This document shows positions 3,639-26,637 of a stretch of DNA of 32,000 nt, one piece after another. The DNA is from Kineococcus radiotolerans SRS30216 = ATCC BAA-149. GTDB lineage: Bacteria; Actinomycetota; Actinomycetes; Actinomycetales; Kineococcaceae. The stretch is taken from contig NC_009664.2 in assembly GCF_000017305.1 (NCBI RefSeq), positions 840,001 through 872,000 on the forward strand, given 5' to 3'. Positions within the stretch are counted from its first letter, which is position 1. Each line of letters starts with the position of its first letter. The translations under genes were made by a program, and so were the position numbers. The notes beneath the pieces were generated by a model. The model worked only from the letters and a program-made list of their open reading frames with translations. It was not told the origin of the DNA and made no database searches.

Positions 3639-3658
3639 CCCCGCACGCTAGCCCCCGC

Positions 3659-5125
3659 TCACGACACCCCGAGGGCCTCCTTCAGCGGGTCGATCGCGAA
3701 GTAGAGCACGAACAGCGCGGCCACGACCCACAGGACCGGGTGCACCTGGCGGGCCTTGCCCTTGGCGACCTTGAGCACGACGAAGGCGATGAACCCGGCC
3801 CCGATGCCCGCGCTGATGGAGTAGGTGAACGGCATGAGGACGATGGTCAGGAAGGCCGGCAGGGCGATCTCGAGGTCGGCCCAGTCGATGCCCTTGACCT
3901 GGGTCATCATGAGGAAGCCCACCACGACCAGCGCCGGCGTCGCGGCCTCGTAGGGCACGATCGAGACGACCGGGGCCAGGAACGTCGCCAGCAGGAACGC
4001 GATCCCGGTGACGACGCTGGCCAGCCCGGTGCGGGCCCCCTCGCCGACACCGGTGGCGGACTCGATGAAGCTGGTGTTGCTCGACACCCCGCCCGCGCCG
4101 CCGGCGGCGGCGGCGATGGAGTCCACGACGAGGATGCGCCGCATGCGCGGAGGGTTGCCCTCGGCGTCGAGGAGGTCGCCCTCGGCCCCGATGGCCACGA
4201 CCGTGCCCATGGTGTCGAAGAAGTCCGCGAGCAGGAGGGTGAACACCAGCAGCAGGACGCTGACGACGCCGATCGCCTGGAAGGACCCCAGCAGGGAGAA
4301 CTGCCCGAGGGTGGAGAAGTCCGGCGCGGACACCCAGCTGTCGGGCAGGGCGGGGACGTTGAGGCCCCAGGCCCGCGGGTCCGCGACCTCCCCGTCGGCC
4401 CCGGTGCGCGGTCCCAGCTGCGCCACCGCCTCCACGACGACGGCCAGCGCCGTGGCGACCACGATCCCGATGAGGATCGAGCCCCGGACCCCGCGGGCCA
4501 TGAGCACGATGGTCAGCAGCAGGCCGACCACGAAGACGAGGGTGGGCCAGCCGGCGAGGAAGCCGCCGATGCCGAGCTCCAGCGGGGTGCCGCTGCCGGA
4601 GCGGACGAAGCCGGCGTCGACGAGGCCGACGATGGTGATGAACAACCCGATGCCGACGCTGATGGCGATCTTCATCTGGGCCGGCACGGCGCGGAACACC
4701 GCCTCGCGCAGGCCGGTGAGCACCAGGACGAGGATGACGAGGCCCTCGATGACGACCAGGCCCATGGCGTCGGCCCAGGTCATCCCGGGCAGGCTCGCCA
4801 CCCCGAAGGCCAGGAAGGCGTTGAGCCCCAGCCCGGTGGCCAGGGCCAGCGGGTAGTTGGCGACCACGCCCATGAGCAGCGTCACCACCCCCGCCACCAG
4901 GGCGGTGCCCGCGGCGACGGCCGCCAGGTCGGGGGCGTCCCCGCCCCCGAGGAAGCCGCCGGTGCCGTCGGGCTGGGTGCCGATGATCAGCGGGTTGAGC
5001 ACGATGATGTAGGCCATCGTGAAGAAGGTCGCGAGACCGCCGCGGACCTCCCGTCCGACGGTGGACCCGCGGGCGCTGACCTCGAACCAGCGGTCGAGGG
5101 CGGACGGTGTGCTGGCGCGCGACAT
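3659..5125 (-). CDS. NCS2-family purine permease (adenine/guanine/hypoxanthine, AzgA/PbuG-like)
   Basis: 488-aa polytopic protein. The N-terminus 'LDRWFEVSARGSTVGREVRGGLATFFTMAYIIVLNP' is the hallmark start of AzgA-type permeases. ATG start at 5125 has an 'agagg' RBS. Confidence 0.85.
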   Translation of the reverse strand: MSRASTPSALDRWFEVSARGSTVGREVRGGLATFFTMAYIIVLNPLIIGTQPDGTGGFLGGGDAPDLAAVAAGTALVAGVVTLLMGVVANYPLALATGLGLNAFLAFGVASLPGMTWADAMGLVVIEGLVILVLVLTGLREAVFRAVPAQMKIAISVGIGLFITIVGLVDAGFVRSGSGTPLELGIGGFLAGWPTLVFVVGLLLTIVLMARGVRGSILIGIVVATALAVVVEAVAQLGPRTGADGEVADPRAWGLNVPALPDSWVSAPDFSTLGQFSLLGSFQAIGVVSVLLLVFTLLLADFFDTMGTVVAIGAEGDLLDAEGNPPRMRRILVVDSIAAAAGGAGGVSSNTSFIESATGVGEGARTGLASVVTGIAFLLATFLAPVVSIVPYEAATPALVVVGFLMMTQVKGIDWADLEIALPAFLTIVLMPFTYSISAGIGAGFIAFVVLKVAKGKARQVHPVLWVVAALFVLYFAIDPLKEALGVS

Positions 5126-5176
5126 TCAGGACCTCTGGGTCTGGGGGGGTTGGACCGCGGGCGATCCTGCCAGAGC

Positions 5177-6460
5177 TCAGTGCACCGGGGCGACCGGCGA
5201 GATCACCACCTGACGCACCGGGGCGTGCACCCCCGCCCACGTCGAGGACAGCGCCTCGTGCAGCACCGCGCCGGCGGCGCCGAGGGCCCCGGCCTGCTCC
5301 CCCGCCTCCCCCAGGCGCACGGCGACCGGGTGGACCTCGCGGGTCATGGCCGTCCCCAGCCGGGCGGCCAGCGCCGCGCGCACCCGCTCCCCGCTGCGGC
5401 GCAGCCCCGCCCCGCCGAGCACCACCTCGCTGACGTCGAGGACGTTGACGACCCCGAGCACCACGCGGGCGACGTCGTCGGCGGCGGCGTCCAGCACCCG
5501 CGCCGCCTCGCGGTCCCCGGCTCCGGCGCGGGCGCCGAGCAGGTCGTGGTCGTCGAGGACGGTGCGCCCGGCCAGGCGCAGGCCCGCGGCCCGGGCGGTG
5601 CGCGAGCCCACCCGTTCGACGTAGCGGCGCACCACGGCCGCGGGGGCGGCGACCGCCTCAAGGCACCCCCGGGACCCGCACGGGCACCGCGGGCCGGCCG
5701 GGTCGACGACGACGTGCCCGATCTCGCCGGCGTTGCCGGAGTCCCCGCGCAGCACCTCGTCGCGCAGCACGACCCCACCGCCGATGCCCGCCCCGACGTG
5801 GACGTAGAGGAAGCTGCGGCCGGTGCGCGGTGAGCGCCAGAGGTCCCCGACCGCCGCGGCGGTGGCGTCGTTCTCCACCAGGACCGGCAGCCCGGTGGCC
5901 GCGGCCAGCAGGTCCGCGATCGCCACCCCGCGCCAGCCCGGCAGGTTGATCGCCGAGCTGCGCACGGGGCCGGTGAAGTCCAGCGGCCCCGGGACCGCCA
6001 CCCCCACCCCGCGCACGGCCCCCTCGTCCGCGCCCCCGGCGCCCACGAGGCGGCGGACGAGGCCGGCGGCGTGGGCCACGACGAGCTCGACGGGGGCCAG
6101 CGGGTCCGGCAGCGGCTCCCGGTCGACCCCGACGACCACCCCGGACAGGTCCAGCAGGACGGCGTCGACGTGCTCGCGCTCGAACTGGACGCCGACGGCC
6201 AGGGCCGCGCCGGGTCGCACCGACAGCGCGGTCCGGGGTTTGCCCGCCCCCCGGCCGGCGCCGTCGCGCAGCAGGGCGACCCCCTCCTGGACCAGTCCGC
6301 GTTCGAGGAGGCGCCGGACGATGTTCGAGACCGTCTGCAGGGTCAGCCCCGTCGCCGCCGCCAGCTCCGTGCGGGAGGTCCCGGGGTGACGACGGATGCC
6401 GTCGAGCACCACCGCCTGGTTGTAGTCCCCCACCCAGGGCAGGTTCGTGCCACGTCGCAC
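5177..6460 (-). CDS. ROK-family transcriptional regulator
   Basis: It has an N-terminal winged HTH ('NQAVVLDGIRRHPGTSRTELAAATGLTLQTVSNIVRRLLERGLV'). The ROK sugar-kinase fold carries the zinc motif 'GHVVVDPAGPRCPCGSRGCLE'. It is divergent from a sugar ABC operon. Confidence 0.85.
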   Translation of the reverse strand: MRRGTNLPWVGDYNQAVVLDGIRRHPGTSRTELAAATGLTLQTVSNIVRRLLERGLVQEGVALLRDGAGRGAGKPRTALSVRPGAALAVGVQFEREHVDAVLLDLSGVVVGVDREPLPDPLAPVELVVAHAAGLVRRLVGAGGADEGAVRGVGVAVPGPLDFTGPVRSSAINLPGWRGVAIADLLAAATGLPVLVENDATAAAVGDLWRSPRTGRSFLYVHVGAGIGGGVVLRDEVLRGDSGNAGEIGHVVVDPAGPRCPCGSRGCLEAVAAPAAVVRRYVERVGSRTARAAGLRLAGRTVLDDHDLLGARAGAGDREAARVLDAAADDVARVVLGVVNVLDVSEVVLGGAGLRRSGERVRAALAARLGTAMTREVHPVAVRLGEAGEQAGALGAAGAVLHEALSSTWAGVHAPVRQVVISPVAPVH

Positions 6461-6521
6461 CGCGCCTCCTCGCGCTCGGCGACCCCTTTGGGATCGTTCT
6501 CAGAATCATGCTCCCGATCCG

Positions 6522-6551
6522 TTGACACGGTCAATCCACTGGATTTACTTT
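6522..6551 (+). promoter_or_regulatory. Candidate sigma-70-type promoter for the sugar ABC operon, overlapped by two short palindromes that may be a ROK operator
   Basis: TTGACA (6522-6527), an 18-nt spacer, then TACTTT (6546-6551), in the most AT-rich patch of the ROK/SBP intergenic region. The palindromes are TTGAC-ACG-GTCAA (6522-6534) and ATCCA-C-TGGAT (6534-6544). Confidence 0.35.
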
Positions 6552-6632
6552 CCTCGGACGGAGCAGCGCACCGGAGCCCGACCGGCCGGCGCGACGCCCA
6601 TCGGATCGGACACCGCCACGAGGGAGTGGGTT

Positions 6633-7994
6633 GTGCGTCGTCGTACCTTCCTGACAGCTACCGGCCTCGGCGCCGGGACCGTGCTCGGAACCGCCGCCTG
6701 CGGGGGCGATTCCCAGTCCGGGGACTCCGACAGCTCGGCGACCAAGGTCGCCTACCAGCAGTGGGGCTCCGGCACCGTGATGAAGGACTACCTCACCGGG
6801 GTGAAGTCGGCTTACGAGTCGGCGAACCCCGGCAAGACCATGGAACTCGTGCCGATCGTCGCCTCCGAGAACGACTACTACACCAAGCTCCAGCTGATGA
6901 TGCGCTCGCCGCGCACCTCCCCGGACGTCGTGTACGAGGACACCTTCCTCATCAACTCCGACATCACCGCCGGGTACCTCCAGCCGCTCGACTCCTTCCT
7001 GGGGAACTGGGAGGAGTGGAACCAGTTCCAGGACGTCGCCAAGGGAGCCGCGAAGGCCGCCGACGGCAAGACGTACGGGGTTCCGGACGGCACCGACACC
7101 CGTGCCCTCTGGTACAACAAGGACCTGTTCACCCAGGCCGGCCTGTCCGCCGATTGGAAACCCGCCGGCTGGGACGACGTCCTGGCCGCCTGCCGGGAAC
7201 TCAAGGGGAAGCTCCCGAACGTCACCCCGATCAACATCTACGCGGGCAAGGCGGCCGGCGAGGCGGCGTCGATGCAGGGTTTCGAGATGATCTTCTACGG
7301 AACCGGTACGACGCTCTACGACCCCGACCAAGACAAGTGGAACGTCGGCAGCCCGGAGTTCCGCGACGCCCTCACGTTCCTCAAGACGGTCTACGACGAG
7401 GGACTCGCGCCCGACCCGTCCATCGCCCTGGACGCCCAGGTGAGCACCCGGGTCCAGGAGGAGTTCCTCCCCGGCGGAACCCTGGCCGTGAACCTCGACG
7501 GGTCCTGGGTGTCGAGCACCTGGCTGGAGACCGGCGGGGCGCCGTGGCCGGAGTGGAACGACACCATGGGGCAGGCCCCGATGCCGACGCGGGACGGTTC
7601 GGACGGGGGCAGCATCAGCATGTCCGGCGGCTGGACGTGGGCCATGACCAAGAACGCCGCGAACGCCGACGACGCGTGGAAGGTCATCTCCACCCTGACC
7701 TCGTTCGAGAACAACCTCAGGTACAACATCAACGCCGCGGCCGTCGCCGTCCGCAAGGACGTCGCGACCGATCCCGAGTACACCGGGTCCAACCCCACGC
7801 TGGAGTTCTTCTCCGGCCTCGTCCCGGTGACGCAGTACCGGCCGCAGAACACCGACTACCCGCGCGTCTCCAGCGAGATCCAGGTGGCCATGGAAGCCGT
7901 CGTGACGGGCCAGGCCAGCGTCGAGGAAGCCGCGAACGCCTACGACGACGCGGTCAAGGGCATCGTCGGCGAGGACCGGACCGCGACGCTCTGA
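6633..7994 (+). CDS. Carbohydrate ABC transporter substrate-binding lipoprotein (family 1 SBP)
   Basis: GTG at 6633 follows 'agggag' (6621-6626). The N-terminus 'VRRRTFLTATGLGAGTVLGTAACGG' combines a twin-arginine signal with a lipobox Cys. The body has the SBP_bac_1 look ('ALWYNKDLF', 'GGWTWAMTKNA'). The track start at 6447 adds an implausible Arg/Pro leader. Confidence 0.85.
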   Translation: MRRRTFLTATGLGAGTVLGTAACGGDSQSGDSDSSATKVAYQQWGSGTVMKDYLTGVKSAYESANPGKTMELVPIVASENDYYTKLQLMMRSPRTSPDVVYEDTFLINSDITAGYLQPLDSFLGNWEEWNQFQDVAKGAAKAADGKTYGVPDGTDTRALWYNKDLFTQAGLSADWKPAGWDDVLAACRELKGKLPNVTPINIYAGKAAGEAASMQGFEMIFYGTGTTLYDPDQDKWNVGSPEFRDALTFLKTVYDEGLAPDPSIALDAQVSTRVQEEFLPGGTLAVNLDGSWVSSTWLETGGAPWPEWNDTMGQAPMPTRDGSDGGSISMSGGWTWAMTKNAANADDAWKVISTLTSFENNLRYNINAAAVAVRKDVATDPEYTGSNPTLEFFSGLVPVTQYRPQNTDYPRVSSEIQVAMEAVVTGQASVEEAANAYDDAVKGIVGEDRTATL

Positions 7995-8023
7995 CCCGTC
8001 GTCCCCAACAGGAAGGAGGGCCC

Positions 8024-8950
8024 GTGGCCACGCTCACCCGCCCCACGTCGGGAGCCCCGGACCGACCGGAACTCCGGCGCAGGACGCACCCGCTGTCGGT
8101 CGACATCGCCCGCGCCCTCCCGCTCACCCCGGCGATCGCGCTGCTGCTGGTGTTCCTCGCCGGCCCGATCCTGTGGTGCGTCTACGCCGCGTTCACGAAC
8201 ACGGCGCTCACCGGGGCCGGCTCGGGCGACACGCAGTTCGTGGGCCTGGACAACTTCCGGGCCGCGTTCGGCAGCGACACGTTCCGCAACTCCGTCGTCC
8301 TCACCCTGGTCTTCACGTTCCTCTCCGCCGTCGTCGGTCAGAACCTGCTCGGCCTGGGCCTGGCCCTGCTCCAGAAGCGCTCGGCGAAGCTCGTGCGCAC
8401 CCTGGTGGGCGTCACCGTCATCGGCGCCTGGGTCATCCCCGAGGTCGTGGCCGGGTACCTCTGGTACGCGTTCCTGGCCGAGGACGGGACGCTGAACGAG
8501 ATCATCGGCGTGCTGGGGCTGGGGCAGAACTGGCTCTACACGCTGCCGATCATCGCGGTGTCGCTGGCCAACGTCTGGCGCGGGACCGCGTTCTCCATGC
8601 TCGTCTACAACGCCGCCCTCTCCGAGATCCCGCAGGAGATCGAGGAGGCCGCCGAGATGGACGGGGCCACCGGCTGGCGGCGGCTGCGCTTCGTCACCGT
8701 CCCGATGATCAAGCGCACCGTGACCACCAACCTCATGCTCATCACGCTGCAGACGCTGTCGGTCTTCGGCCTCATCTACACGATGACCCGCGGCGGGCCC
8801 GGCACCAAGAGCCAGACGCTGCCGCTGTACATGTACGAACAGGCCTTCTCCTTCAGCCAGATCGGCTACGGCACCGCCATCGCCCTCGTCCTGCTCGCGG
8901 TCGGCGGGGTCTTCTCCATCGTCTACATGCGCCTGCTGCGCGAGGACTGA
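8024..8950 (+). CDS. Carbohydrate ABC transporter permease (MalF/UgpA-like)
   Basis: GTG at 8024 follows 'ggaaggaggg' (8011-8020), in the frame of track ORF 6071..8950. Multiple TM helices. EAA loop 'EIEEAAEMDGATGWRRLRFVTVPMIK'. Confidence 0.85.
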   Translation: MATLTRPTSGAPDRPELRRRTHPLSVDIARALPLTPAIALLLVFLAGPILWCVYAAFTNTALTGAGSGDTQFVGLDNFRAAFGSDTFRNSVVLTLVFTFLSAVVGQNLLGLGLALLQKRSAKLVRTLVGVTVIGAWVIPEVVAGYLWYAFLAEDGTLNEIIGVLGLGQNWLYTLPIIAVSLANVWRGTAFSMLVYNAALSEIPQEIEEAAEMDGATGWRRLRFVTVPMIKRTVTTNLMLITLQTLSVFGLIYTMTRGGPGTKSQTLPLYMYEQAFSFSQIGYGTAIALVLLAVGGVFSIVYMRLLRED

Positions 8951-8955
8951 CGCCC

Positions 8956-9849
8956 ATGACCACCGAGACCCCCACCCCCGCGATCGCCACGACGAAGCTC
9001 TCCGTCGCGCACAAGGCGGTCGGCCCCCGCACCTGGGTCGCCGGGGCCGCCGCCAACCTCGTCACCGGCGTCCTCGGGATCCTGTTCCTGATCCCCCTGC
9101 TGTGGGTGGTGTTCGCGGCCTTCGACGCCGACGCCGGCCTGAAGCTGGAGTGGCCGGGGTCGGACCTCAGCCTGGACAACTTCCGGGCCGTGCTGACCCC
9201 GGAGACGACCTACCGCCCCATGTGGAACGGCCTCGTTCTGTGCGTCGGCTCCACCGCCATCGCCATCGTCGTCGCGACGCTGGCCGCCTACCCGCTGTCC
9301 CGCTTCGAGACCCGCTACAAGCGCCCGTTCCTGCTGACCATCCTGTTCTCGACCGGTCTGCCGATCACGGCGATCATGGTCCCGGTCTACGGGTTGTTCG
9401 TGCAGCTGAACCTCGTCGACACCATCAGCGGCACGGTGGCGTTCATGGCGACGACCGCGCTACCCATGTCGATCTTCCTCATGAAGAACTTCATGGACGG
9501 CGTCCCCCTCACCCTCGAGGAGGCCGCCTGGACCGACGGCGCGACGTCGATGCAGACGCTGCGCCACATCGTGCTGCCGCTCATGTGGCCCGGGATGTCG
9601 GTGGTGATGATCTTCACGTTCATCGGGATGTGGGGGAACTTCTTCATCCCCTTCATCCTGCTGCTCTCCCCCGACCGGCTGCCGGCCTCGGTGAGCATCT
9701 TCACCTTCTTCGGCCAGTACGGCTCGGTGCAGTGGGGCCAGCTCGCGGCCTACTCGATCCTCTACACCCTGCCCGTGGTCCTCCTCTACGTGCTGCTCTC
9801 GCGGCGCCTGGGCGGGGCGTTCAACTTCGGCGGCGCCCTCAAGGGCTGA
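8956..9849 (+). CDS. Carbohydrate ABC transporter permease (MalG/UgpE-like)
   Basis: ATG at 8956 lies 5 nt after the upstream stop, in the frame of track ORF 8173..9849. EAA loop 'LEEAAWTDGATSMQTLRHIVLPLMWP'. Confidence 0.85.
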   Translation: MTTETPTPAIATTKLSVAHKAVGPRTWVAGAAANLVTGVLGILFLIPLLWVVFAAFDADAGLKLEWPGSDLSLDNFRAVLTPETTYRPMWNGLVLCVGSTAIAIVVATLAAYPLSRFETRYKRPFLLTILFSTGLPITAIMVPVYGLFVQLNLVDTISGTVAFMATTALPMSIFLMKNFMDGVPLTLEEAAWTDGATSMQTLRHIVLPLMWPGMSVVMIFTFIGMWGNFFIPFILLLSPDRLPASVSIFTFFGQYGSVQWGQLAAYSILYTLPVVLLYVLLSRRLGGAFNFGGALKG

Positions 9850-14175: not shown

Positions 14176-15834
14176 TCACGAGATCTTGCGCGCGCGGTGC
14201 GCGGCGTAGGCCCAGCCGATCCCCACGGCCGCGAGGGTCGCGACGAGCTGGCCGAGCAGCAGCCAGTCGTGGGCCCCCCGCGCCAGCACGGCGAGCAGGA
14301 TCGGCGCGCTGACCAGGACGGCGAGGTCGGGCCCCGTCGTGGTGGCCGCGGCCGCCCCCGGCGGCAGCCCGCCCATGGCGGTGGCGATGACCGGGCCGGA
14401 CAGGTCCGGGTCGGGACGGACGGCGCCGCGCAGGCCCGCGGCGGCGAACCCCGGCCCGGCCAGCGCCCCCAGCAGCGCCCACGACCACCACGCCGTGCCC
14501 GGGGACCCCCCGTGCAGCAGGCCGGAGGCGGTGACGGTGAGCGGCACCGCGAGCGCGCCCCACGCGGAGCAGAGCACGGCGACCGGGACCCAGCGGACCA
14601 GCACGACCCCGGTCGCGGAGATCGGCAGCGTCCGGGCGGCGGCGGGCACCAGGGCCAGCCCGCGGGCCGGTTCGGACAGCGTGGTCGCGGCGGCGTAGCC
14701 GGCCAGCCACAGCAGCAGCGCGCCCACCGCGCGGTGCGCGGAGGTCCCCGAGGCCAGGACGAAGGGCACCAGGGCCAGGACGCCGGCGGTGACGAGCCGG
14801 CGCGGCTGGCGGCGCAGCAGGACGACGTCGGCGGCGAGGACCGCGCGGACCGGCCCGCCGGCCCGGGTGAACCGGGCCCGGCGGCGGCGCCGCGCCCCGG
14901 AGTCCGCCGACAGCGCCCGCCCCATCTCGCGGACGTCGAACTGCAGCACCGAGGAGGTCAGCCGCTCCAGCCGGGACGCCCCGCGCCGCAACGAGGGCGA
15001 GGGGATCTCCCCCACGCGCGACCAGGCGGGCCGCCCGACCGCGGCGAGGACGACCAGGGCGGCCGTCCCGACGACGACGGCGGGCACGAGGACCGCGCTC
15101 GGGTGCACGGCGTCGACGCGGATCCCGACGACCGCCGAGCCCGCGAGGGCGAGCACCAGCCCCACCCCGACCCCGTCCAGGACCCGCCCGACCCGCAGCA
15201 GCGCCTCGACCCCCGCCCCTACGGCCGGGCGCACGACGAGGGCGTACCCCGCGGCCGCCGTCCCGGCGCCGACGGCGAACCCCCCGAGGAGGCCGCCGGC
15301 GACGGTGGCGCCGCTGAGGTCGCCGCTCACCCCGAAGGCGACCGAGGAGGTCCACGCCGTGAACAGCCCGCCCGTGAGCGCCGTGCCCAGCGCGCGGTTG
15401 CGCACCACGGGCCGCAGCAGGTCCGCGCGGGGCACCGGCAGCGGGGTCCACCACGTCGTCGGGGCGGTGGGCAGGCTCACCGGCCCCAGCCGGCACCACG
15501 CCGCGAGGCCGAAGGCGATGACGCTGCAGGAGAGCCCGACGGCGAGGACGACGGCGGAGGTCTGCGGCACCCAGCCCGGTCCCTCGCCGCTGCGGGCCAG
15601 CCCGCTGCGCAGGGCCTCGCGCAGGGACCCGCTGCCGCCGAGCAGGAGCAGGAACGCGATCCCCACCTGCAGCAGCGTCGTGTAGGTGTCGGTGAGGGTG
15701 GCGCGCAGACCGCGGGCCGCCTTGGAGGGGGCGGCCTCGTCGAGCAGCTCCCGGCGGGTGGGGTGGGGCTGGTCGGCGAGCGGCCCCACCAGGAGCGGGG
15801 CGTCCGGCCGGGATCCCGCGGCGGGTCCGGTCAT
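14176..15834 (-). CDS. Large polytopic membrane protein of unknown function, the partner of the upstream ABC ATPase. It may belong to the DUF6297-type family; that name is from memory and unverified.
   Basis: 552 codons from ATG 15834, which overlaps the ATPase stop (ATGA), in the frame of track ORF 14176..16431. There are at least 10 long Ala/Leu/Val/Gly hydrophobic segments separated by Arg-rich loops (for example 'RRRRRARFTRAGG'). I can see no EAA loop or recognisable ABC-2 motif. Confidence 0.6.
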   Translation of the reverse strand: MTGPAAGSRPDAPLLVGPLADQPHPTRRELLDEAAPSKAARGLRATLTDTYTTLLQVGIAFLLLLGGSGSLREALRSGLARSGEGPGWVPQTSAVVLAVGLSCSVIAFGLAAWCRLGPVSLPTAPTTWWTPLPVPRADLLRPVVRNRALGTALTGGLFTAWTSSVAFGVSGDLSGATVAGGLLGGFAVGAGTAAAGYALVVRPAVGAGVEALLRVGRVLDGVGVGLVLALAGSAVVGIRVDAVHPSAVLVPAVVVGTAALVVLAAVGRPAWSRVGEIPSPSLRRGASRLERLTSSVLQFDVREMGRALSADSGARRRRRARFTRAGGPVRAVLAADVVLLRRQPRRLVTAGVLALVPFVLASGTSAHRAVGALLLWLAGYAAATTLSEPARGLALVPAAARTLPISATGVVLVRWVPVAVLCSAWGALAVPLTVTASGLLHGGSPGTAWWSWALLGALAGPGFAAAGLRGAVRPDPDLSGPVIATAMGGLPPGAAAATTTGPDLAVLVSAPILLAVLARGAHDWLLLGQLVATLAAVGIGWAYAAHRARKIS

Positions 15835-16553
15835 CGGACGGGGTCGCTGACGATCCGGGCGGCCTCGTCGGCGTCGACCACGCGGCACACCGGCGCCACC
15901 TCGGGGTCGTCCACGACGACGGCGCGGGTGGCCAGCGCGCGCAGCAGGACGACGTCGTGGGTGGCCAGGACCAGCGCCGTCCCGGCGTCGCGCTCGGCGA
16001 CGAGGCGTTCGGCCAGCGCCTCGCGCCCGGTCGGGTCGAGCCGCTGCTCGGGTTCGTCGAGCAGCAGGACCGCGCGGGGGCGGACGAGGGCGGCGGCCAG
16101 CAGCAGGCGGCGCTTCTGCCCGCTGGAGAGGGACCCGGGCAGCTGGTCGGCGGCCCCGGTGAGCCGTTGCGCCTCGAGCTCGGCGTCGACGACCCCGACG
16201 ACGTCGCGGACCCCGTGCCCGCGGGCGACGAGCTCGAGGTGCTCGGCGACGGAGAGCTCGGCGAACCAGGCGTCCTCGTCGAAGACGGAGGCGACCTCGC
16301 GGCGGAACTGCGCGGACCGCTCGTCGACGGCCCGGCCGCGCAGGGTCACCGTGCCGCCCAGGGGCTGCAGCAGCCCGGCGACGGCGCGCAGCACGGTGGA
16401 CTTGCCCGCGCCGTTGGCCCCGACCAGGCACAGCGCCTCCCCCGCCGCGACGTCGACGGTCACCGGGGCGCAGACGGGCCGGCCGTAGCCGACCCGCAGG
16501 TCCTCCAGCGCCAGCACGACGTCGCGGGCCGGGCGGGCCCTCCCCCGGCTCAC
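15831..16553 (-). CDS. ABC transporter ATP-binding protein
   Basis: Walker A 'GANGAGKST', signature 'LSSGQKRRL', Walker B 'VLLLDEPE', H-loop 'LATHD'. The GTG at 16553 overlaps the recG stop (GTGA). An alternative in-frame GTG at 16517 would give the more typical '[12 protein letters not shown]' N-terminus. Confidence 0.85.
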
Positions 16554-18829
16554 GCGCGCTCCAGGAAGGCCTCGGTGTCGCCGCTGACCCGGGCCGCGAC
16601 GGCCGCGGCGAGGGGGCGGTGGGCGGAGAGGTCGGGATCGGCGGCGACGAGGGTCACCGCGGCGGCGCGGGCGTGGGCCACGAGCTCGGCGTCGCGCAGG
16701 ACCCCGAGCAGCTGCAGGGAGCTGCGCTCCCCCGACTGCGCGGCCCCGAGCACGTCGCCCTCGCGGCGCTGCTCGAGGTCGAGGCGGGCCAGCTCGAAGC
16801 CGTCCCGGGTCCGGGCCAGGGCCGCGAGCCGCTGCCCGGCGGGGGACCCCTCCGAGGCCCCGGACAGCAGCAGGCAGGTGCCGGGCAGCCCACCGCGCCC
16901 GATCCGCCCGCGCAGCTGGTGCAGCTGGGAGATGCCGAAGCGGTCGGCGTCGACGACGACCATGACGCTGGCGTTGGGCACGTCGACGCCGACCTCGACG
17001 ACGGTGGTGGCCACGACGACGTCGACCTCGCCGGCGGCGAACCGGCTCATGACGTCGTCCTTCTCGGCCGGGGGGAGGCGGCCGTGCAGGACCTCGGTGC
17101 GCAGCCCGGCGGTGGCGGGGTGGGTGCGGACCACCTCGACGACCTGGCTGACGGCGGCTGCGGGCCGCGGCTTCGGCCTGCCCGGCTTCCCGCCGCGCGG
17201 GCGCGGTTCCTCGAAGAGGGCGTCGTCGGGTGCCGGTTCCTCCCCGGGCCCGTCCTCGGGGGGCGTGCCGTCCTCACCGCCCTCGTCGTCGGTGTCGATG
17301 CGCGCGCAGACGACGTAGGACTGCCGCCCCAGCGCGGCCTCCTCGGCGATGCGCTGCCAGGTGCGGTCGATCCAGGCGGGGCGGTCCTGGGGGACGACGA
17401 CGGTCTGCACGTCGGCGCGCCCGGGCGGGAGCTCGGTGAGCACCGAGGTCTCCAGGTCGCCGAAGAGGGTCATGGCGACGGTGCGCGGGATCGGGGTGGC
17501 CGTCATCACCAGCAGGTGCGGGATGCCGTTGCCCTTGGCGCGCAGCGCGTCGCGCTGCTCGACGCCGAAGCGGTGCTGCTCGTCGACGACGACGAACCCG
17601 AGGTCGGCGAACTGCACGTGCTCCTGCAGCAGGGCGTGGGTCCCGATGACGATCCCGGCCTCCCCGCTCGCCGCGGCCAGCAGGGCCGCGCGGCGGGCGG
17701 GCGCGCCCATCGAGCCGGTGAGCAGGACGACCTTCGTGGCCCGCTCGTGCGCCCCGAACGTCCCGGCGCCGGCGAGGTCGCCGAGCATCGCGGTGATCGA
17801 GCGCAGGTGCTGGGCGGCGAGGACCTCGGTGGGGGCCAGCAGCGCGGCCTGCCCCCCGCCGTCGACGACGGTCAGCATGGCCCGCAGCGCGACGAGGGTC
17901 TTGCCGGAGCCGACGTCGCCCTGCAGGAGGCGCTGCATGGGGTGCGGGCGGGCGAGGTCGGCGGCGATCTCCTCGCCCACGGCGCGCTGGGAGCCGGTGA
18001 GCGGGAACGGCAACCGCTGGTCGAAGGCCGCGGCGATCCCGTCCGGGGAGGCGGTGCGGGCGACGGCGCGCTGGCGGGCGGTGGAGGCCCGGCGCAGCGC
18101 CAGCGCGGTCTGCAGGACGAACGCCTCCTCGTAGCGCAGCCGGTGCCGGCCGGCTTCCAGCTCGGCCTCGTCGCGGGGGGCGTGCACGGCGCGCAGGGCC
18201 GCGAGGGGGTCGAGGAGGTCCGCGCCGGCGACGACCTCGGCGGGCAGGAACTCCGGCAGCTGCCCCTCGAGGCCGTCGAGGAGCTGCGCGACGCTCTGGC
18301 GGACCAGCCAGTTCGGCGCGGCCTTGGAGGCGGGGTAGAGCGGGATGGGCCGGTTGACGGCGTCCACGCCGTCCTCGGGGTCCTCCAGCGTCTCGTAGTC
18401 GGGGTGCGACAGCTGCCAGACGTCCTGGAACTTGCTCACCTTCCCCGAGGCCAGGACCAGCGCACCGGGGACGAGGTCGGCCTTCTGGTGGGCGAACTGG
18501 CCGGCGAACTTGGCGAAGAAGGTCATGGTGAGGGTGTCGCGGCCGTCGCCGAGGGTCACCACGAGGCGGACGCCGTCCTTGGCGCGCATGCGCTGGGGCT
18601 CCCCGTACTTCACGACCTGGGCCAGGATCGTGGCGTTCTCGCCCTCGACGAGGTCGCGGATGGGGGTGAGCGTGCCGCGGTCGGCGTAGCGGCGCGGCAG
18701 GTGCCACAGCAGGTCCCGGACGGTCTCCAAGCCGAGGCCCTCGGAGAGGAACTTCGCCGGGTTGGCCTTCTTGCTGTTCCCCTTGCCCCGCGGGAGCCGG
18801 CTGGACAGGGGTGCGTCCAGCTCGTCCAC
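16550..18829 (-). CDS. recG: ATP-dependent DNA helicase RecG
   Basis: 759 aa. The wedge/OB N-terminal region is followed by SF2 helicase motifs '[11 protein letters not shown]' (I), '[10 protein letters not shown]' (II) and 'MTATPIPRT' (III). Motif VI and the TRG region are '[11 protein letters not shown]'. Confidence 0.95.
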
Positions 18830-21624: not shown

Positions 21625-22755
21625 TCAGCGCAGGCCGGTGGGGCGGCGCAGCGCGAGCTGGATCAGCCGGTGCACGAGCTCGGGGTAGTCGACGCCGGTG
21701 GCCGCCCACATCCGCGGGTACATCGAGAACGGCGTGAACCCGGGCATGGTGTTGATCTCGTTGACCACGATGCCGTCCTCCCCCCGGGCGGGGTCGACGA
21801 AGAGGTCGACGCGGGCCAGGCCCTCGGCCCCCATGGCCTCGAAGACCCGCACCGCGGTGCGGCGCACGGCGGCGACGACGTCGTCGGGCAGGTCCGCGGG
21901 GCAGGTCAGCCGCACGTTGCCGGAGTCGAGGTACTTGGCCTCGAAGTCGTAGAAGTCGTGGCCGCCGACGACCTCGACCTCCCCGGGCAGGCTCGTCAGC
22001 GGTTCCCCGCCGTCGAGGTCCTCCAGGACCCCGCACTCGATCTCCCGGCCGACCAGCGCCGCCTCGACGACGACCTTCGGGTCGTGCGAGACGGCCTCGG
22101 CCACCGCGGCGGCCAGGCCCTCGCGGGAGGTGACACGGGTGATCCCGATGCTGGAGCCCGCGCGGGCGGGCTTGACGAAGACCGGGTACCCGAGGGCCTC
22201 CACCTCGGCGACGACGCCGTCGCGGTCGGTGTCCCAGCGGCGGGCGCGGAAGGAGGTCCAGGGCCCCACGGGCAGGCCCTGCCCGGCCAGCAGCAGCTTC
22301 ATGACCTGCTTGTCCATGCCCGCCGCCGAGGCCAGCACCCCGGACCCGACGTAGCGGGTGTCGGAGAGCTCCAGCAGCCCCTGCAGGGTGCCGTCCTCGC
22401 CGAAGGGCCCGTGCAGCAGCGGCAGCACGACGTCGACCTCGCCGAGCTCGGCGAGCGCCGGGGCGCCGGGGGCGCCGCCGAGGCGCTGCAGCGCCTTCGT
22501 GTCCACGTCGAGGGGCAGCCCGACGGGCGTGCCGGTCGCGGGCACCTCGGGCAGGGCCCCGTCGGTGAGCTCGAACCGGGCGGGGTCCTCCACGAGCACC
22601 CACCGCCCCGTGGTGGTGATGCCGATCGGCACGACGTCGTAGACGTCGCCGTCGAGGGCCGCGAGCACGCCCGCGGCGGTCACGCAGCTGATGGCGTGCT
22701 CGGAGGATCGGCCGCCGAAGACGACGGCGACGCGGGGCTTGGGCTGGCTGCTCAT
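21625..22755 (-). CDS. ddl: D-alanine--D-alanine ligase
   Basis: 'VAVVFGGRSSEHAISCVTA', 'LHGPFGEDGTLQGLLE', the ATP-grasp section 'PVFVKPARAGSSIGI' and 'NEINTMPGFTPFSMYP'. Confidence 0.95.
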   Translation of the reverse strand: MSSQPKPRVAVVFGGRSSEHAISCVTAAGVLAALDGDVYDVVPIGITTTGRWVLVEDPARFELTDGALPEVPATGTPVGLPLDVDTKALQRLGGAPGAPALAELGEVDVVLPLLHGPFGEDGTLQGLLELSDTRYVGSGVLASAAGMDKQVMKLLLAGQGLPVGPWTSFRARRWDTDRDGVVAEVEALGYPVFVKPARAGSSIGITRVTSREGLAAAVAEAVSHDPKVVVEAALVGREIECGVLEDLDGGEPLTSLPGEVEVVGGHDFYDFEAKYLDSGNVRLTCPADLPDDVVAAVRRTAVRVFEAMGAEGLARVDLFVDPARGEDGIVVNEINTMPGFTPFSMYPRMWAATGVDYPELVHRLIQLALRRPTGLR

Positions 22756-22775: not shown

Positions 22776-24014
22776 GTGTGGTTGGGTTCCTGCGTGCCCG
22801 AGAACCTGCCCGCGGACGTGTCCGAGAACACCCCGCAGAACGCCCCGCTGTCCCCCGCCACCCTGGCCGTGGTCTCCGGCCGTCCCCCGCGCGGTCTCGA
22901 CAGCGAGCTGAACACCCCCGTCTCGCTGTCCGCCACGTTCGTCGGCGGCGGGTCGCTGGGGGCGGCCGAGCTCGGCTACGGCCGGTTCGCGAACCCGACC
23001 TGGGCCGCGCTGGAGACCGCGATCGGCGACCTGGAGGGGGGCCGGGCGCTGGCCTTCGCCTCCGGCATGGCCGCCGTCGCCGCGGCGCTGCACCTGGTCC
23101 CGGCCGAGGGGACCGTCCTGGTGCCCCACGGGGCCTACAACGGCACCCACTCCCTCAGCGGCCTGCTCAGCACCCAGGGCCGCCTCGCCGTGCAGCCGGT
23201 GGACATCACCGACCTCGACGCCGTGCGCACGGCGCTGGGCGCGCTGAGCGGGCCGGTGCTGCTGTGGCTGGAGTCGCCGACCAACCCGCTGCTGGAGGTG
23301 GCCGACATCGCCGCCCTGGCCGCGCTGGGCCACGAGCACGGGGCGACGGTGGTGGTGGACAACACCTTCGCGACCCCGCTGCTGCAGCGGCCGCTGGAAC
23401 TGGGCGCCGACGTCGTCGTGCACTCGGTGACGAAGTTCCTCTCCGGCCACTCCGACGTCGTCCTGGGCGCGGCGGTCGCCCGCGACGAGGCGGTCCTGAC
23501 CGCGCTGAAGGCGCACCGGACCTTCCACGGGGCCATCCCCGGGCCGATGGAGGCGTTCCTGGCCCTGCGCGGGATCCGCACGCTGCCGCTGCGGCTGGAG
23601 CGCTCGCAGGCCTCCGCCGCCGACCTGGCCCGCCGGCTGCTCGCGCACCCCGCGGTGACCCGGGTGCGCCACCCCTCCCTGCCCGACGACCCCGGCCACG
23701 CCCTGGCCGCCGCGCAGATGGCGGGCTTCGGGGCGCTGGTCTCCATCGAGGTGGTCGGGGGCGCGGCGGGGGCGGACGCTGTCGTGGACGCGGTGCGGCT
23801 GTGGGTGCCCGCGACCAGCCTGGGCGGGGTGGAGTCGCTGGTGGAGCGCCGCCGCCGGCACGGCAACGAACCCGTCGTCGTCCCGGAGGACCTGCTGCGG
23901 CTCTCCGTGGGCGTGGAGGACGTGGAGGACCTCTGGCGGGACCTGGCCCGGGCCCTGGACCGCGCGCTGGCCCACGCCCCGGGGTCCGGCGGGGGCGCGG
24001 CGGGAACCGCCTGA
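22776..24014 (+). CDS. PLP-dependent Cys/Met-metabolism (trans-sulfuration) enzyme, cystathionine gamma-synthase/lyase-like
   Basis: 'ESPTNPLLEVADI', 'VVVDNTFATPLLQRPLELGADVVVHSVTKFLSGHSDV' (PLP-lysine motif TKF..GHSD) and 'SLGGVESLVE'. The start is uncertain. GTG 22776 is only 20 nt from the divergent ddl start, and in-frame GTGs at 22794 and 22818 are alternatives. Confidence 0.8.
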   Translation: MWLGSCVPENLPADVSENTPQNAPLSPATLAVVSGRPPRGLDSELNTPVSLSATFVGGGSLGAAELGYGRFANPTWAALETAIGDLEGGRALAFASGMAAVAAALHLVPAEGTVLVPHGAYNGTHSLSGLLSTQGRLAVQPVDITDLDAVRTALGALSGPVLLWLESPTNPLLEVADIAALAALGHEHGATVVVDNTFATPLLQRPLELGADVVVHSVTKFLSGHSDVVLGAAVARDEAVLTALKAHRTFHGAIPGPMEAFLALRGIRTLPLRLERSQASAADLARRLLAHPAVTRVRHPSLPDDPGHALAAAQMAGFGALVSIEVVGGAAGADAVVDAVRLWVPATSLGGVESLVERRRRHGNEPVVVPEDLLRLSVGVEDVEDLWRDLARALDRALAHAPGSGGGAAGTA

Positions 24015-24106
24015 GGGACGCGCGCGTCGGACCACCGGGAACACCCCGGGCCCGCGCCGCGCTGCACCGAGCGCGACACGCCCGGGACCTCCCGGTGGTC
24101 CGGCCT

Positions 24107-24124
24107 TATCTCATCTGTGAGATA
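24107..24124. promoter_or_regulatory. Perfect 7-4-7 palindrome TATCTCA-TCTG-TGAGATA, a candidate operator for the downstream XRE-HTH fusion protein
   Basis: Read directly from the sequence. The palindrome ends 10 nt upstream of ATG 24135 and forms a locally AT-rich island in a very GC-rich intergenic region. Confidence 0.4.
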
Positions 24125-24134
24125 CGGTGCCCGC

Positions 24135-25685
24135 ATGGCAGTCTCCACCGAGCAGATGACGCCCAGCAGCGACCACCTGTCGCAGATCGGCGCCCTCATC
24201 CGCGACGCCCGCAAGCACCGGGGTCTCACCCAGGTCCAGCTCGCGGAACGCCTGGGCACGTCCCAGAGCGCCGTCCACCGCATGGAACAGGGGCAGCAGA
24301 ACGTCTCGATCGACATGCTGCAGCGCGTCGGTCACGCCCTCCAGGACGACATCGTGTCCATCGGGCGGCCCAGCCCGACGCACCTGCGCGTCCACGGCGG
24401 GGTGAAGCTCTCGGGCAGCATCGCCGTGAAGTCCAGCAAGAACGCCGGGGTGGCCCTGCTGTGCGCCGCGCTGCTCAACAAGGGCCGCACGACGTTGCGC
24501 GGGGTGGCGCGGATCCTGGAGATCCACCGCATCCTCGACGTGCTGGCCAGCATCGGCGTCCGCTACGAGTGGGTCAACGAGGCCGACCTCGTCCTCGACG
24601 TGCCGACCGAGCTGGACCTGGACGCGATGGACGGCGAGACCGCGCGCCGCACCCGCAGCATCATCATGATGCTCGGCCCGCTGCTGCACCGCTACGACGA
24701 GTTCGCGCTGCCCTACGCCGGCGGTTGCGACCTCGGCACCCGCACCGTCGAGCCGCACATGGTCGCCCTGCGCCCCTTCGGGTTGTCCATCACCGCCACG
24801 ACCGGCTACTACCACGCGACGGTCGACCAGACCGTGTCCCCGCAGCGCCCCATCGTCCTGACCGAGCGCGGCGACACCGTGACCGAGAACGCCCTCATGG
24901 CGGCGGCCCGGGTCGAGGGCGTCACCACGATCCGCAACGCCAGCCCGAACTACATGGTCCAGGACCTCTGCTTCTTCCTGGAGCAGCTGGGCGTGCGGAT
25001 CGACGGGATCGGCACCACGACCCTCGTCGTGCACGGCGTCAAGGACATCTCCGTCGACGTCGACTACGCCCCCTCCGAGGACCCGGTGGAGGCGATGAGC
25101 CTGCTGACCGCGGCGATCATCACCCACTCCGAGCTCACCGTGACCCGCGCCCCGATCGAGTTCCTCGAGATCGAGCTGGCGATCCTGTCCGAGATGGGCC
25201 TGGAGTACGACCTCACCCCGGAGTACACCGCCGCGAACGGGCGCACCCGCCTGGTGGACATCACGGTGCACCCCTCGGAGCTCAAGGCCCCGATCGACAA
25301 GATCCACCCGATGCCGTTCCCGGGCCTGAACATCGACAACCTGCCGTTCTTCGCCGTCATCGCGGCGAGCGCGGAGGGGTCGACCACGGTGCACGACTGG
25401 GTCTACGACAACCGGGCGATCTACCTCACCGAGCTCAACCGGCTGGGGGCGCGGGTGAAGCTGCTCGACCCGCACCGCGTGCTGGTGGAGGGCCCGACGC
25501 GCTGGTCGGGGGCGGAGGTGCTCTGCCCGCCGGCCCTGCGCCCGGCCGTGGTGGTGCTGCTGGCGATGCTGGCGGCCAAGGGGACCTCCGTCCTGCGCAA
25601 CGTGGACATCATCGCCCGCGGCTACGAGCAGCTGGCCGAGCGGCTGACCCCGCTGGGCGCGCAGATCGAGACCTTCCGCGACTGA
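24135..25685 (+). CDS. Fusion protein: an N-terminal XRE/Cro-C1 helix-turn-helix domain joined to a MurA-like enolpyruvyl transferase (EPSP-synthase fold)
   Basis: The HTH is 'IGALIRDARKHRGLTQVQLAERLGTSQSAVHRMEQGQQNVSIDMLQRVGHAL' (about aa 15-70). MurA motifs follow: 'VKSSKNAG', 'TRSIIMMLGPLL', 'GGCDLGTRTVEPH' (Cys codon at 24726-24728), 'FPGLNIDNLPFF', 'YDNRAIYLTEL' and 'DIIARGYE'. I prefer ATG 24135 to the track's GTG 24117 because 24117 lies inside the upstream palindrome. Confidence 0.8.
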   Translation: MAVSTEQMTPSSDHLSQIGALIRDARKHRGLTQVQLAERLGTSQSAVHRMEQGQQNVSIDMLQRVGHALQDDIVSIGRPSPTHLRVHGGVKLSGSIAVKSSKNAGVALLCAALLNKGRTTLRGVARILEIHRILDVLASIGVRYEWVNEADLVLDVPTELDLDAMDGETARRTRSIIMMLGPLLHRYDEFALPYAGGCDLGTRTVEPHMVALRPFGLSITATTGYYHATVDQTVSPQRPIVLTERGDTVTENALMAAARVEGVTTIRNASPNYMVQDLCFFLEQLGVRIDGIGTTTLVVHGVKDISVDVDYAPSEDPVEAMSLLTAAIITHSELTVTRAPIEFLEIELAILSEMGLEYDLTPEYTAANGRTRLVDITVHPSELKAPIDKIHPMPFPGLNIDNLPFFAVIAASAEGSTTVHDWVYDNRAIYLTELNRLGARVKLLDPHRVLVEGPTRWSGAEVLCPPALRPAVVVLLAMLAAKGTSVLRNVDIIARGYEQLAERLTPLGAQIETFRD

Positions 25686-25718: not shown

Positions 25719-25722
25719 ACGG

Positions 25723-25760
25723 CAGGAGGCCCCCGCACCGTCGAGGTGCGGGGCCTCCTG
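25723..25760. terminator. Long GC hairpin between the convergent HTH::MurA-like and HU genes, probably a bidirectional terminator
   Basis: CAGGAGGCCCCCGCACC (25723-25739), loop GTCGA, GGTGCGGGGCCTCCTG (25745-25760): 16 bp with one bulged C. Confidence 0.55.
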
Positions 25761-25799
25761 CGCGTGCGGGCCCGGGCGGGACCGCGGGAACCGCGCGGT

Positions 25800-26339
25800 T
25801 CAGGCCTTCTTGGCGACCCGCCGGGTCGTGGTGGCCGTCTTGGCCGGCGCCGCCTTCCGGGCGGTGGTGGTGCTCGTGGTGCGGGCCGGCGGGGCGGCCT
25901 TCTTGGCCGTGGCCGTGCTCGTGCGGGCCGGGGCGGCCTTCACGGGAGCGGTCCGGGCCGGGGCCGCCTTGCGCGCCGCCGGGGTCGCGGCGGCCTTCTT
26001 GGCCGGGGCCGCGGCGGGGCCGGCGGTGCGCTCCTTGACCTCGGCCTGGAAGGCGCGCAGCGCCTTGGTGTCGGAGACGATCTCCTTGAAGGCGGTGCCG
26101 GGGCGGAAGCGGGGCACGGAGGTCTTCTTGATCTTGACGGCCTCGCCGGTGCGGGGGTTGCGTCCGGTGCGGGCGTTGCGGGCCTGCTTCTCGAAGGTGC
26201 CGAAGCCGCTGATGGCGACCTTGTCGCCCTTGGCGACGGTGAGCTGGATGAGCTCCACGACCGCCTCGACGGCCGACACGGCCTGCTTGCGGCCGCCGAG
26301 ACGCGCCTCGAGCGCGTCCACCATCTCTGCCTTGTTCAC
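25800..26339 (-). CDS. hupB: Nucleoid-associated protein HU with an actinobacterial-type basic Ala/Lys/Pro/Thr-rich C-terminal tail (HupB/MDP1/Hlp-like)
   Basis: GTG at 26339 follows 'ggaggagcc' (minus sense). The HU fold is 'VNKAEMVDALEARLG...AISGFGTFEKQARNARTGRNPRTGEAVKIKKTSVPRFRPG'. About 90 aa of 'AAPAKKAAATPAARKAAPARTAPVKAAP...' repeats follow. The track start at 26462 adds an implausible leader. Confidence 0.9.
   Translation of the reverse strand: MNKAEMVDALEARLGGRKQAVSAVEAVVELIQLTVAKGDKVAISGFGTFEKQARNARTGRNPRTGEAVKIKKTSVPRFRPGTAFKEIVSDTKALRAFQAEVKERTAGPAAAPAKKAAATPAARKAAPARTAPVKAAPARTSTATAKKAAPPARTTSTTTARKAAPAKTATTTRRVAKKA
25803..26069 (-). repeat. Degenerate tandem coding repeats for the low-complexity basic tail of HU
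   Basis: 'ggccttcttggc' recurs at about 25803, 25888 and 25993. 'gtgcgggccgg' recurs at about 25879 and 25919. Both encode AKKA / PAR(T) repeats. Confidence 0.6.
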
Positions 26340-26637
26340 GGGGCTCCTCCTGGGGGGTTCGGATCGTCCGGGCCGAGCAGGAGCCCGACGGGGAAACGGT
26401 ACGACCGACCACCACCGGAGTCCACCACCGGTGGGGCGGCGATTCGTTGCGCCGCAGCACACCTCGCCGCCGCGACCGCGGCGGGGCCTGCGCCGCAGGG
26501 CGTCCGCGCCCCGGCGACCGGGTCGCCGTGCCCGCGGTCGCGGTCGCGCGGATGTCGTTGCCGCACAACGGGTCCGGACGCAGAACGGCCCCGGTCCCGC
26601 TGCGCCGCAGCGGGAATCCGGGGCCGTCCGGGAGGGC

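Follow-up and report, generated by a model that had tools for sequence, protein, structure and literature searches.

A MurA-Type Enolpyruvyl Transferase Fused to a Helix-Turn-Helix Domain, a Putative Self-Repressing Enzyme of Kineococcus with Relatives in Actinomycetota and Patescibacteria

A 32,000-nt stretch of G+C-rich actinobacterial DNA from Kineococcus radiotolerans (contig NC_009664.2, positions 840,001 to 872,000; hereafter the window, with all positions counted from its first letter) encodes a protein, HTH-MurA, in which an XRE-type helix-turn-helix (HTH) is joined to a complete MurA-type enolpyruvyl transferase. Based on a comparison with its homologs and their promoters, the protein is explained, with moderate confidence, as a bifunctional enzyme and repressor (a "trigger enzyme") with self-repression and a small regulon. 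The enzyme probably shuts down the expression of its own gene and of a small number of further genes. By the same comparison, the gene is the Kineococcus ortholog of Streptomyces MurA2 (SCO5998).

Results

Domain architecture of HTH-MurA

The coding sequence of HTH-MurA was located at positions 24135–25685 of the forward strand, as an uninterrupted open reading frame (ORF) that begins with ATG and encodes 516 amino acids (aa) followed by a stop codon. The G+C content at its third codon positions was 0.98, which matches the expectation for a true gene of this genome. An alternative in-frame start, the GTG at 24117, was rejected on three grounds: it lies within the operator described below, the spacing of 6–8 nt between a TAnnnT hexamer and the ATG is conserved among the homologs, and SCO5998 is on record as leaderless. 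On this comparative evidence, the true start is ATG 24135.

The XRE/Cro-C1 HTH occupies 24183–24341 (aa 17–69) on the forward strand, as do the other parts of the protein, and carries the recognition helix TSQSAVHRME. This region was matched by the Pfam families HTH_31 (PF13560, E 1.4e-12) and HTH_3 (PF01381, E 2.8e-12). It is followed by an inter-domain linker at 24351–24368 (aa 73–78) and by the MurA-type enolpyruvyl transferase domain at 24378–25682 (aa 82–516), which was identified through Pfam, NCBIfam, PDB, and Foldseek. Specifically, the Pfam family EPSP_synthase (PF00275) matched aa 87–504 with an E value of 2e-45, and the protein passed the NCBIfam MurA subfamily model NF006873 with 325.9 bits against a cut-off of 297. 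In a PDB sequence search, the top matches were MurA structures (E 1e-55), with NikO (E 1e-23) and also AroA far weaker.

An AlphaFold2 model, for which an alignment of 60 sequences served as the input, had a predicted local distance difference test score (pLDDT) of 89.7 and a predicted template modeling (TM) score of 0.81. The model consists of a helical bundle at aa 11–68 with helices at aa 11–28, 33–40, 44–51, and 59–68, a low-confidence linker at aa 73–78 with a pLDDT below 50, and a MurA fold at aa 82–516, and the HTH passes into the first MurA strand through a short structured transition. It was superposed by Foldseek on MurA structures with TM scores of 0.85–0.91. A full-length, two-domain EPSP-synthase/MurA fold was hence recovered by Pfam, the PDB search, and the model, and the reading of a preliminary description of the window, that an HTH and a full MurA fold are joined in a single frame, was upheld. 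The same polypeptide combines an intact active site with a DNA-binding domain, as is expected of a trigger enzyme.

Catalytic residues and the sugar-nucleotide pocket

A total of 121 fused family members were aligned, with E. coli MurA from NC_000913 as the reference for residue numbering. Nine residues that bind phosphoenolpyruvate (PEP) or take part in catalysis, namely K22, N23, R91, C115, R120, D305, R331, R371, and R397, were invariant among all 121 homologs, and the same nine were also invariant among 25 fused proteins of Patescibacteria. Most of the motif assignments made earlier from the sequence were correct, including those for Lys22, Arg91, Cys115 and Arg120, Asp305, and Arg397. For example, Cys198 of the window protein, encoded by TGC at 24726–24728, is the equivalent of E. 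coli Cys115. The exception was the DNRA motif, which had been assigned to Arg371 but holds the equivalent of Arg331; the Arg371 equivalent is R469 in the motif PALRPA. With all PEP-binding and catalytic residues intact and invariant across the family, the protein does not resemble a decayed enzyme, in agreement with the preliminary description, and the loss of catalytic residues that is typical of a pseudoenzyme was observed only among distant fused relatives.

The pocket for the sugar nucleotide was different from that of canonical MurA. The changes S162G, V163D, E188N, M306N, D369P/A, P121T, and L124P were fixed in the subfamily, while representatives of canonical MurA retained S162-V163, E188, and D369. 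In place of the canonical residues for UDP-GlcNAc (uridine diphosphate N-acetylglucosamine), G246-D247, N272, and P466/A467 are found in the window protein, and L468 is retained. These positions, including D369/L370 and V163, have been assigned to the interaction with UDP-GlcNAc or fosfomycin (PMC4062475, PMC10500568). As judged from the alignment, the residues that carry the chemistry are intact, and the acceptor pocket is a distinct subtype.

A predicted operator and leaderless promoter

An 18-bp palindrome, TATCTCA-tctg-TGAGATA, lies upstream of the gene at 24107–24124, and the dimeric protein is predicted to bind to it through its HTH. It was the sole match to the dyad in the window at up to two mismatches, where 0.11 matches were expected by chance, and it was also detected as an inverted repeat. 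No further copies were found in the window even at three mismatches, including at the ddl gene and the gene of the HU-family protein. The same dyad was present upstream of the Streptomyces and Kribbella orthologs. Furthermore, a comparison of 87 actinobacterial promoters (86 loci and the window) revealed the dyad in every one of them: the 16-bp core ATCTCA-N4-TGAGAT was perfect in 79, and the other eight differed at one or two bases. The comparison predicts a genuine, conserved operator of the HTH-MurA gene, in agreement with the preliminary description, which had already given the gene a dyad operator of its own.

The hexamer TACGGT at 24123–24128 on the forward strand shares its first two bases with the end of the operator and is separated from the ATG by 6 nt (gcccgc). 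It is -10-like in that it conforms to TAnnnT, the actinobacterial form of the -10 element. In all 87 promoters, a TAnnnT hexamer takes its first two letters from the dyad's final TA, with 6–8 nt between its end and the start codon. Based on this geometry, a leaderless mRNA that starts at or beside A24135 was predicted. The prediction was borne out by the published experimental start mapping of the Streptomyces coelicolor ortholog, where the transcript of SCO5998 (murA2) is listed as leaderless (PMC4895711, Supplementary Data 2). A promoter and terminator scan found nothing at the HTH-MurA gene; the consensus used is of the E. coli type, which makes the scan uninformative for this type of promoter. 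The operator spans the -10 element and the upstream spacer, which would be the classical position of a repressor.

A second element was observed in the Streptomyces promoters, where the motif TCACCCGnnYGG occurs about 30 nt upstream of the dyad (e.g., L047 1801–1825). Read on the opposite strand, it matches the BldM-WhiI Group II motif, which has been published together with a BldM-WhiI footprint on the murA2 promoter (PMC4125116). Its presence confirms the identity of murA2, and it would represent an activator site separate from the operator. At the corresponding position, the promoters of Kineococcus, a genus that does not sporulate, have the sequence GACAC(G/T)CC (24072–24084 in the window), which may be related to the activator site.

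Operator copies at other genes

The specificity of the motif was examined in 1.74 Mb of actinobacterial DNA that flanks the orthologs, using TATCTC-N6-GAGATA with at most one mismatch. The sites were limited to three kinds: the fused gene's own promoter, a position about 135 bp upstream of the start of the aconitase gene acnA, and one extra site that two loci have within the shared intergenic region. The acnA site was present in every locus that covers the region upstream of acnA. Its sequence, TATCTCGATGTCGAGATA, was identical in 65 Streptomycetaceae loci (loci L012–L087; e.g., L022 9830–9847 and L013 7981–7998), and three more loci had a variant with one mismatch (e.g., L001 5048–5065). As the site stays with acnA even when acnA is up to 7.5 kb away from murA2, it belongs to acnA. 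In the direction of acnA, the operator is found right behind a conserved TAGAGT and upstream of an iron box that others have pointed out (PMC12161575). Within Streptomycetaceae, this position suggests repression at the start of transcription. In genera outside of this family, an aconitase gene was not found at a distance of 10 kb or less from the fused gene.

In a structure of MurA1 from Streptococcus pneumoniae (3zh4), which is among the Foldseek matches of the window protein, a citrate is bound. The structure is mentioned because the regulon candidate is an aconitase, and it is not evidence for citrate as a ligand of HTH-MurA.

The patescibacterial set was composed of 82 metagenome and genome loci (within L088–L170). 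In approximately 74 of them, the dyad AT(A/C)TCA-N4-TGA(T/G)AT, at times exactly ATCTCA-N4-TGAGAT, was located 25–165 nt upstream of the fused gene. The palindrome hence accompanies the protein in all 87 actinobacterial loci and in about 74 of the 82 patescibacterial ones, and the recognition helix is invariant. The murB gene adjoins the fused gene in 41 of the 82 loci, immediately divergent in 38 and directly downstream in three. Where murB is the immediate divergent neighbor, the dyad falls in the control region between murB and murA. Extra dyads were also found before a Mur ligase gene (L131, ~2660), before class IV aminotransferase operons (L134 and L149, ~5511; L103, ~3240), and before a gene that resembles those of beta-lactamases or penicillin-binding proteins (PBPs) (L163, ~2650). 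The aminotransferase operons begin with an ORF of 83–90 aa, and no Pfam match was obtained for the one tested. Operators at both the gene itself and genes of the same pathway, as known from trigger enzymes, were thus observed in Patescibacteria, and the window has the site at the gene's own promoter only.

Distribution of the fusion and its wider family

The fusion is not a rare architecture. At least 595 reference genomes carry it in a scan with one genome per species. Members of the family occur in numerous orders of Actinomycetota and are abundant in Patescibacteria. Both domains were present in all of the best 120 database homologs, and the lengths of these proteins ranged from 506 to 522 aa and were mostly near 509 aa. 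The closest matches came from Kineococcus with 90–93% identity, followed by homologs of about 74–75% identity that span several actinobacterial families and come from Streptomyces, Kitasatospora, Kribbella, Nocardiopsis, Nonomuraea, Aeromicrobium, Actinocatenispora, Stackebrandtia, and others. Among the representatives of a library that had been clustered at 50% identity, P0121 (73%) was the only full-length fused protein with more than 50% identity. Five more distant HTH-MurA-like fusions (P0140, P0147, P0152, P0158, and P0162) have 35–37% identity and are 500–517 aa in length.

Members from Patescibacteria were gathered by the search of representatives and by a further homology search that started from an unfused family member. 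The pocket subtype was abundant among them (Parcubacteria, Zambryskibacteria, Vogelbacteria, and others), both in HTH-fused proteins of about 505 aa and in unfused proteins of about 436 aa. The nearest MurAs with the canonical signature in the search of representatives were also patescibacterial. In a rough neighbor-joining distance tree without support values, the interleaved fused and unfused patescibacterial proteins, a tight group of actinobacterial fused proteins, and the divergent fused set formed a single clade that is separate from canonical MurA. Across the actinobacterial, patescibacterial, and divergent fused groups, the recognition helix TSQSA(V/I)xR(M/I)E was kept. HTH-MurA is a large and ancient fusion family.

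Genomic neighborhood in the window

The gene is monocistronic. On its upstream side is a gene for a pyridoxal phosphate (PLP) enzyme of Cys/Met metabolism (22776–24014), and ddl is found two genes away (21625–22755). On the other side, a convergent gene on the reverse strand (25800–26462) encodes an HU-family protein of the HupB/HupS type with a long C-terminal tail rich in Ala, Lys, Pro, and Thr, beyond which are leuD, leuC, and the gene of an IclR regulator. The listed ORF of the HU protein starts at a GTG about 45 codons before the conserved NKAEMV start, so that translation probably begins near 26330; the homolog in Kineococcus gynurae is 175 aa long. Between the convergent HTH-murA and HU genes, an inverted-repeat search detected a G+C-rich hairpin at 25722–25761 with perfect arms of 12 bp (GCAGGAGGCCCC and GGGGCCTCCTGC). 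The hairpin has no T tract and was missed by a terminator scan that depends on one; it probably terminates transcription from both sides and may belong to the factor-independent terminators of actinobacteria.

The proximity to ddl and HU, which the preliminary description had pointed out, is specific to Kineococcus. The neighbors of the Streptomyces and Kribbella orthologs are unrelated to those in the window; the Streptomyces orthologs adjoin the aconitase gene or are within a few kb of it. In K. gynurae (L007 8810–9850), the gene order is the same, but gpsA, which encodes a glycerol-3-phosphate dehydrogenase, is located between the PLP enzyme gene and HTH-murA, where the two genes of the window are separated by just 120 bp of intergenic DNA (24015–24134). 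As gpsA is inserted in K. gynurae and not in the window, the slot between ddl and hupB is variable within Kineococcus. A functional link to ddl or HU was rejected on account of these differences and of the missing operator at either gene, and on the comparative evidence the neighborhood is coincidental and offers no functional clue. The backbone of this neighborhood resembles the hupB-leuDC region of mycobacteria. No biosynthetic cluster was found around the HTH-MurA gene in any lineage examined.

Other parts of the window, at 3018–9849 and 14176–18829, are unrelated to this gene. They encode a YdeI/OmdA-domain protein, a permease of the xanthine/uracil family, a DUF6297 protein, and RecG, in addition to a ROK-family regulator with a winged HTH, whose gene is divergent from an ATP-binding cassette sugar-transport operon (solute-binding protein and permease).

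Discussion

Relation to known proteins

The closest relative with a name in the literature is Streptomyces MurA2 (SCO5998 in S. coelicolor; sven5810 or vnz_28735 in S. venezuelae), an ortholog of 509 aa and about 74% identity that shares the HTH and MurA domains, the operator, and the leaderless type of promoter. The coordinates of SCO5998 (6573186–6574715) give 509 aa, which is the fused length. The Kineococcus protein differs from MurA2 in an N-terminus longer by nine residues, and neither an aconitase gene nor a second operator is present within the window. The gene murA2 is adjacent to acnA (SCO5999) in S. coelicolor (PMC12161575), it is a target of BldM-WhiI in late development (sven5810; PMC4125116), and its overexpression caused no exploration phenotype (PMC11005364). 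The preliminary description knew of no characterized member of this architecture. This remains valid for the HTH and a role in DNA binding, on which no searchable paper was found, but the ortholog itself has a name, a reported pair of regulators, and a mapped leaderless start (PMC4895711). Searchable papers treat MurA2 as a second MurA and mention neither the HTH nor an operator or regulon. Similarly, database entries name members of the family either "UDP-N-acetylglucosamine 1-carboxyvinyltransferase" or "helix-turn-helix domain-containing protein". In the searchable literature, which subscription-only papers are outside of, the gene name was mentioned, and no paper was found that deals with autoregulation by the protein, its HTH domain, its operator, the site at aconitase, or the circuit of Patescibacteria.

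Canonical MurA of E. coli and Enterobacter cloacae (PDB 1UAE, 3SWD) shares with the window protein the two-domain, inside-out alpha/beta fold and all nine catalytic and PEP-binding residues, but it has no DNA-binding domain, and the identity between them is only about 27–31%. A precedent for two differentially regulated MurA-type enzymes in one genome is the MurAA/MurAB (MurA1/MurZ) pairs of Firmicutes (PMC12077105, PMC6736417). Unlike HTH-MurA, these paralogs have no HTH and are controlled post-translationally through ReoM/IreB/ClpCP and PASTA kinases. NikO, the enolpyruvyl-UMP synthase of an actinomycete (PDB 4FQD), is a transferase of the MurA fold with an acceptor other than UDP-GlcNAc and serves as a model of changed specificity; it also has no HTH, and it is encoded in an antibiotic gene cluster, while the HTH-MurA gene stands alone.

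BirA, PutA, and NadR each combine an enzyme and a DNA-binding domain in one chain, with operators at their own gene and at pathway genes. The proposed working principle of HTH-MurA is alike, and the folds of both the enzyme and the DNA-binding domain are different. The HTH region of the window protein also matched NCBIfam NF006015 (E 1.5e-10), which represents BzdR-type regulators composed of an XRE HTH and a sensor domain that resembles shikimate kinase. In BzdR, the XRE HTH is likewise N-terminal to an enzyme-derived domain. That domain, however, is a non-catalytic sensor, and the window protein keeps the catalytic residues.

A proposed mechanism

In the proposed mechanism, HTH-MurA would bind to the palindrome as a dimer, with half-sites that are 11 bp apart and lie on one face of the helix. 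The bound protein would occlude the -10 region and the start site and would repress its own transcription. It would be an active enolpyruvyl transferase as well, most likely on UDP-GlcNAc, because the patescibacterial members with the same pocket adjoin murB and Mur ligase genes. A small regulon is proposed because the operator occurs at further genes. Its patescibacterial version would include murB, a Mur ligase gene, a class IV aminotransferase operon, and also a PBP-like gene, and that of Streptomycetaceae would include acnA; in the window, it would be limited to the gene's own promoter.

The most speculative step would be a change of DNA affinity upon occupancy of the MurA domain. A coupling of this kind between substrate status and transcription had been proposed in the preliminary description and is plausible. 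Candidate signals may include the adduct of PEP with the catalytic Cys, UDP-GlcNAc, uridine diphosphate N-acetylmuramic acid (UDP-MurNAc), and the resulting movement of MurA from the open to the closed form. Canonical MurA closes from its open form in a large movement and is found in a tight "dormant" complex with PEP-Cys115 and UDP-MurNAc, and entries of the dormant complex (PDB 3SWD, 3SU9, 8D84) were among the Foldseek matches. If DNA binding were gated by such a ligand, the protein would be a trigger enzyme of the BirA/PutA type, with its expression matched to the flux of precursors. In an extended form, HTH-MurA would be a metabolite-gated repressor, and the catalytic cycle of the first committed enzyme of peptidoglycan synthesis would directly set transcription; the circuit would be ancient, would control murB, murC, and the supply of D-amino acids in Patescibacteria, and would have been re-wired in Actinobacteria, to aconitase in the case of Streptomycetaceae. 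We consider this extended form tentative and somewhat doubtful.

Points against the proposal and alternative explanations

Several points weigh against a bifunctional enzyme and repressor. Both DNA binding and catalysis were predicted from the sequence, the sign of the regulation (repression) is read from the position of the operator, and the modulation of DNA binding by a ligand is entirely conjectural. The window protein also scored 306.3 bits for the NCBIfam murA equivalog TIGR01072, below the cut-off of 392.7. As this cut-off is not reached and the pocket differs from that of canonical MurA (V163D, E188N, M306N, D369P/A, and P121T), the acceptor substrate could differ. A second MurA that is reported for S. 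coelicolor may render the role of HTH-MurA as an enzyme redundant or secondary. The evidence for an operator at acnA comes from Streptomycetaceae, and there is no second site in the window. Finally, the divergent fusions P0140, P0147, P0152, P0158, and P0162 have lost C115, R120, R91, and R371 and retain the helix TSQSA(V/I)ARxE, and in their alignment they look like pseudoenzyme transcription factors. They lost the catalytic residues and kept the HTH, which shows that a pure sensor can arise from this scaffold.

These divergent fusions also speak for the serious rival, a pure transcription factor in which the MurA domain would only sense PEP, UDP-GlcNAc, UDP-MurNAc, or another anion, with a housekeeping MurA encoded elsewhere. 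BzdR-type regulators are a precedent for an XRE HTH with an enzyme-like sensor, and NF006015 was matched here. Such a factor would also agree with the low TIGR01072 score, with the two MurA genes reported in S. coelicolor (PMC12161575), and with a Streptomyces regulon that includes aconitase, which is not a cell-wall gene. Nevertheless, we judge it unlikely: the nine invariant residues of the 121 actinobacterial and 25 patescibacterial proteins include the catalytic Cys and the base Asp305, which would be unneeded for mere binding, and the patescibacterial members adjoin murB in the manner of a pathway enzyme. A transferase with an acceptor other than UDP-GlcNAc, tethered to DNA or self-regulated and similar to enzymes of the NikO type, was raised in the preliminary description as well. 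The changes that are fixed in the subfamily around the sugar and diphosphate pocket (V163D, E188N, M306N, D369P/A, P121T, and L124P), at positions of which canonical MurAs keep several, and again the equivalog score are in its favor. It has been weakened by the Patescibacteria, where proteins of the same signature are encoded beside murB and Mur ligase genes in very small genomes and are the obvious MurA. The much weaker similarity to NikO than to MurA and the lack of a biosynthetic cluster around the gene in the lineages examined also contradict it, and it appears quite improbable.

With regard to the DNA, the dyad might act as RNA, in the form of a hairpin within a 5' leader, or might be bound by a different regulator, with the HTH serving, for example, protein-protein contact. 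The arms could form a stem of 7 bp, and other regulators do act or are predicted at the Streptomyces promoter (BldM-WhiI, and, as a prediction, DmdR1, with a box in the shared intergenic region; PMC12161575). A role as an RNA hairpin is nonetheless unlikely because the transcript is leaderless and the dyad would not be transcribed. In addition, the sequence of the arms, and not just their pairing, is conserved across phyla, the dyad accompanies the fused gene and the invariant recognition helix in two phyla, and the BldM-WhiI motif is separate and about 30 nt further upstream. This explanation is therefore highly improbable. The chance that an error of sequencing or assembly joined two genes is practically negligible, as the comparative data refute it: the identical, uninterrupted architecture occurs in hundreds of independent genomes and metagenomes, and the model has a structured transition between the HTH and the MurA fold.

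Implications

The known controls on MurA are post-translational, namely feedback by UDP-MurNAc, ClpCP/ReoM, and CwlM. If the bifunctional enzyme and repressor is correct, a MurA with its own HTH and operator would represent a transcriptional control of the pathway that is embedded in the enzyme, and MurA would join the short list of trigger enzymes. Candidate members of its regulons would be, for Patescibacteria, murB, murC, and the class IV aminotransferase and, for Streptomyces, acnA. For the Patescibacteria, which are mostly uncultured, the circuit may be one of the few that can be predicted. In Streptomycetaceae, the re-wiring, if true, would be a direct link at the level of an enzyme between the flux of cell-wall precursors and the tricarboxylic acid cycle in late development. 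It suggests that the Streptomyces murA2, so far considered a spare enzyme, may also regulate aconitase during sporulation.

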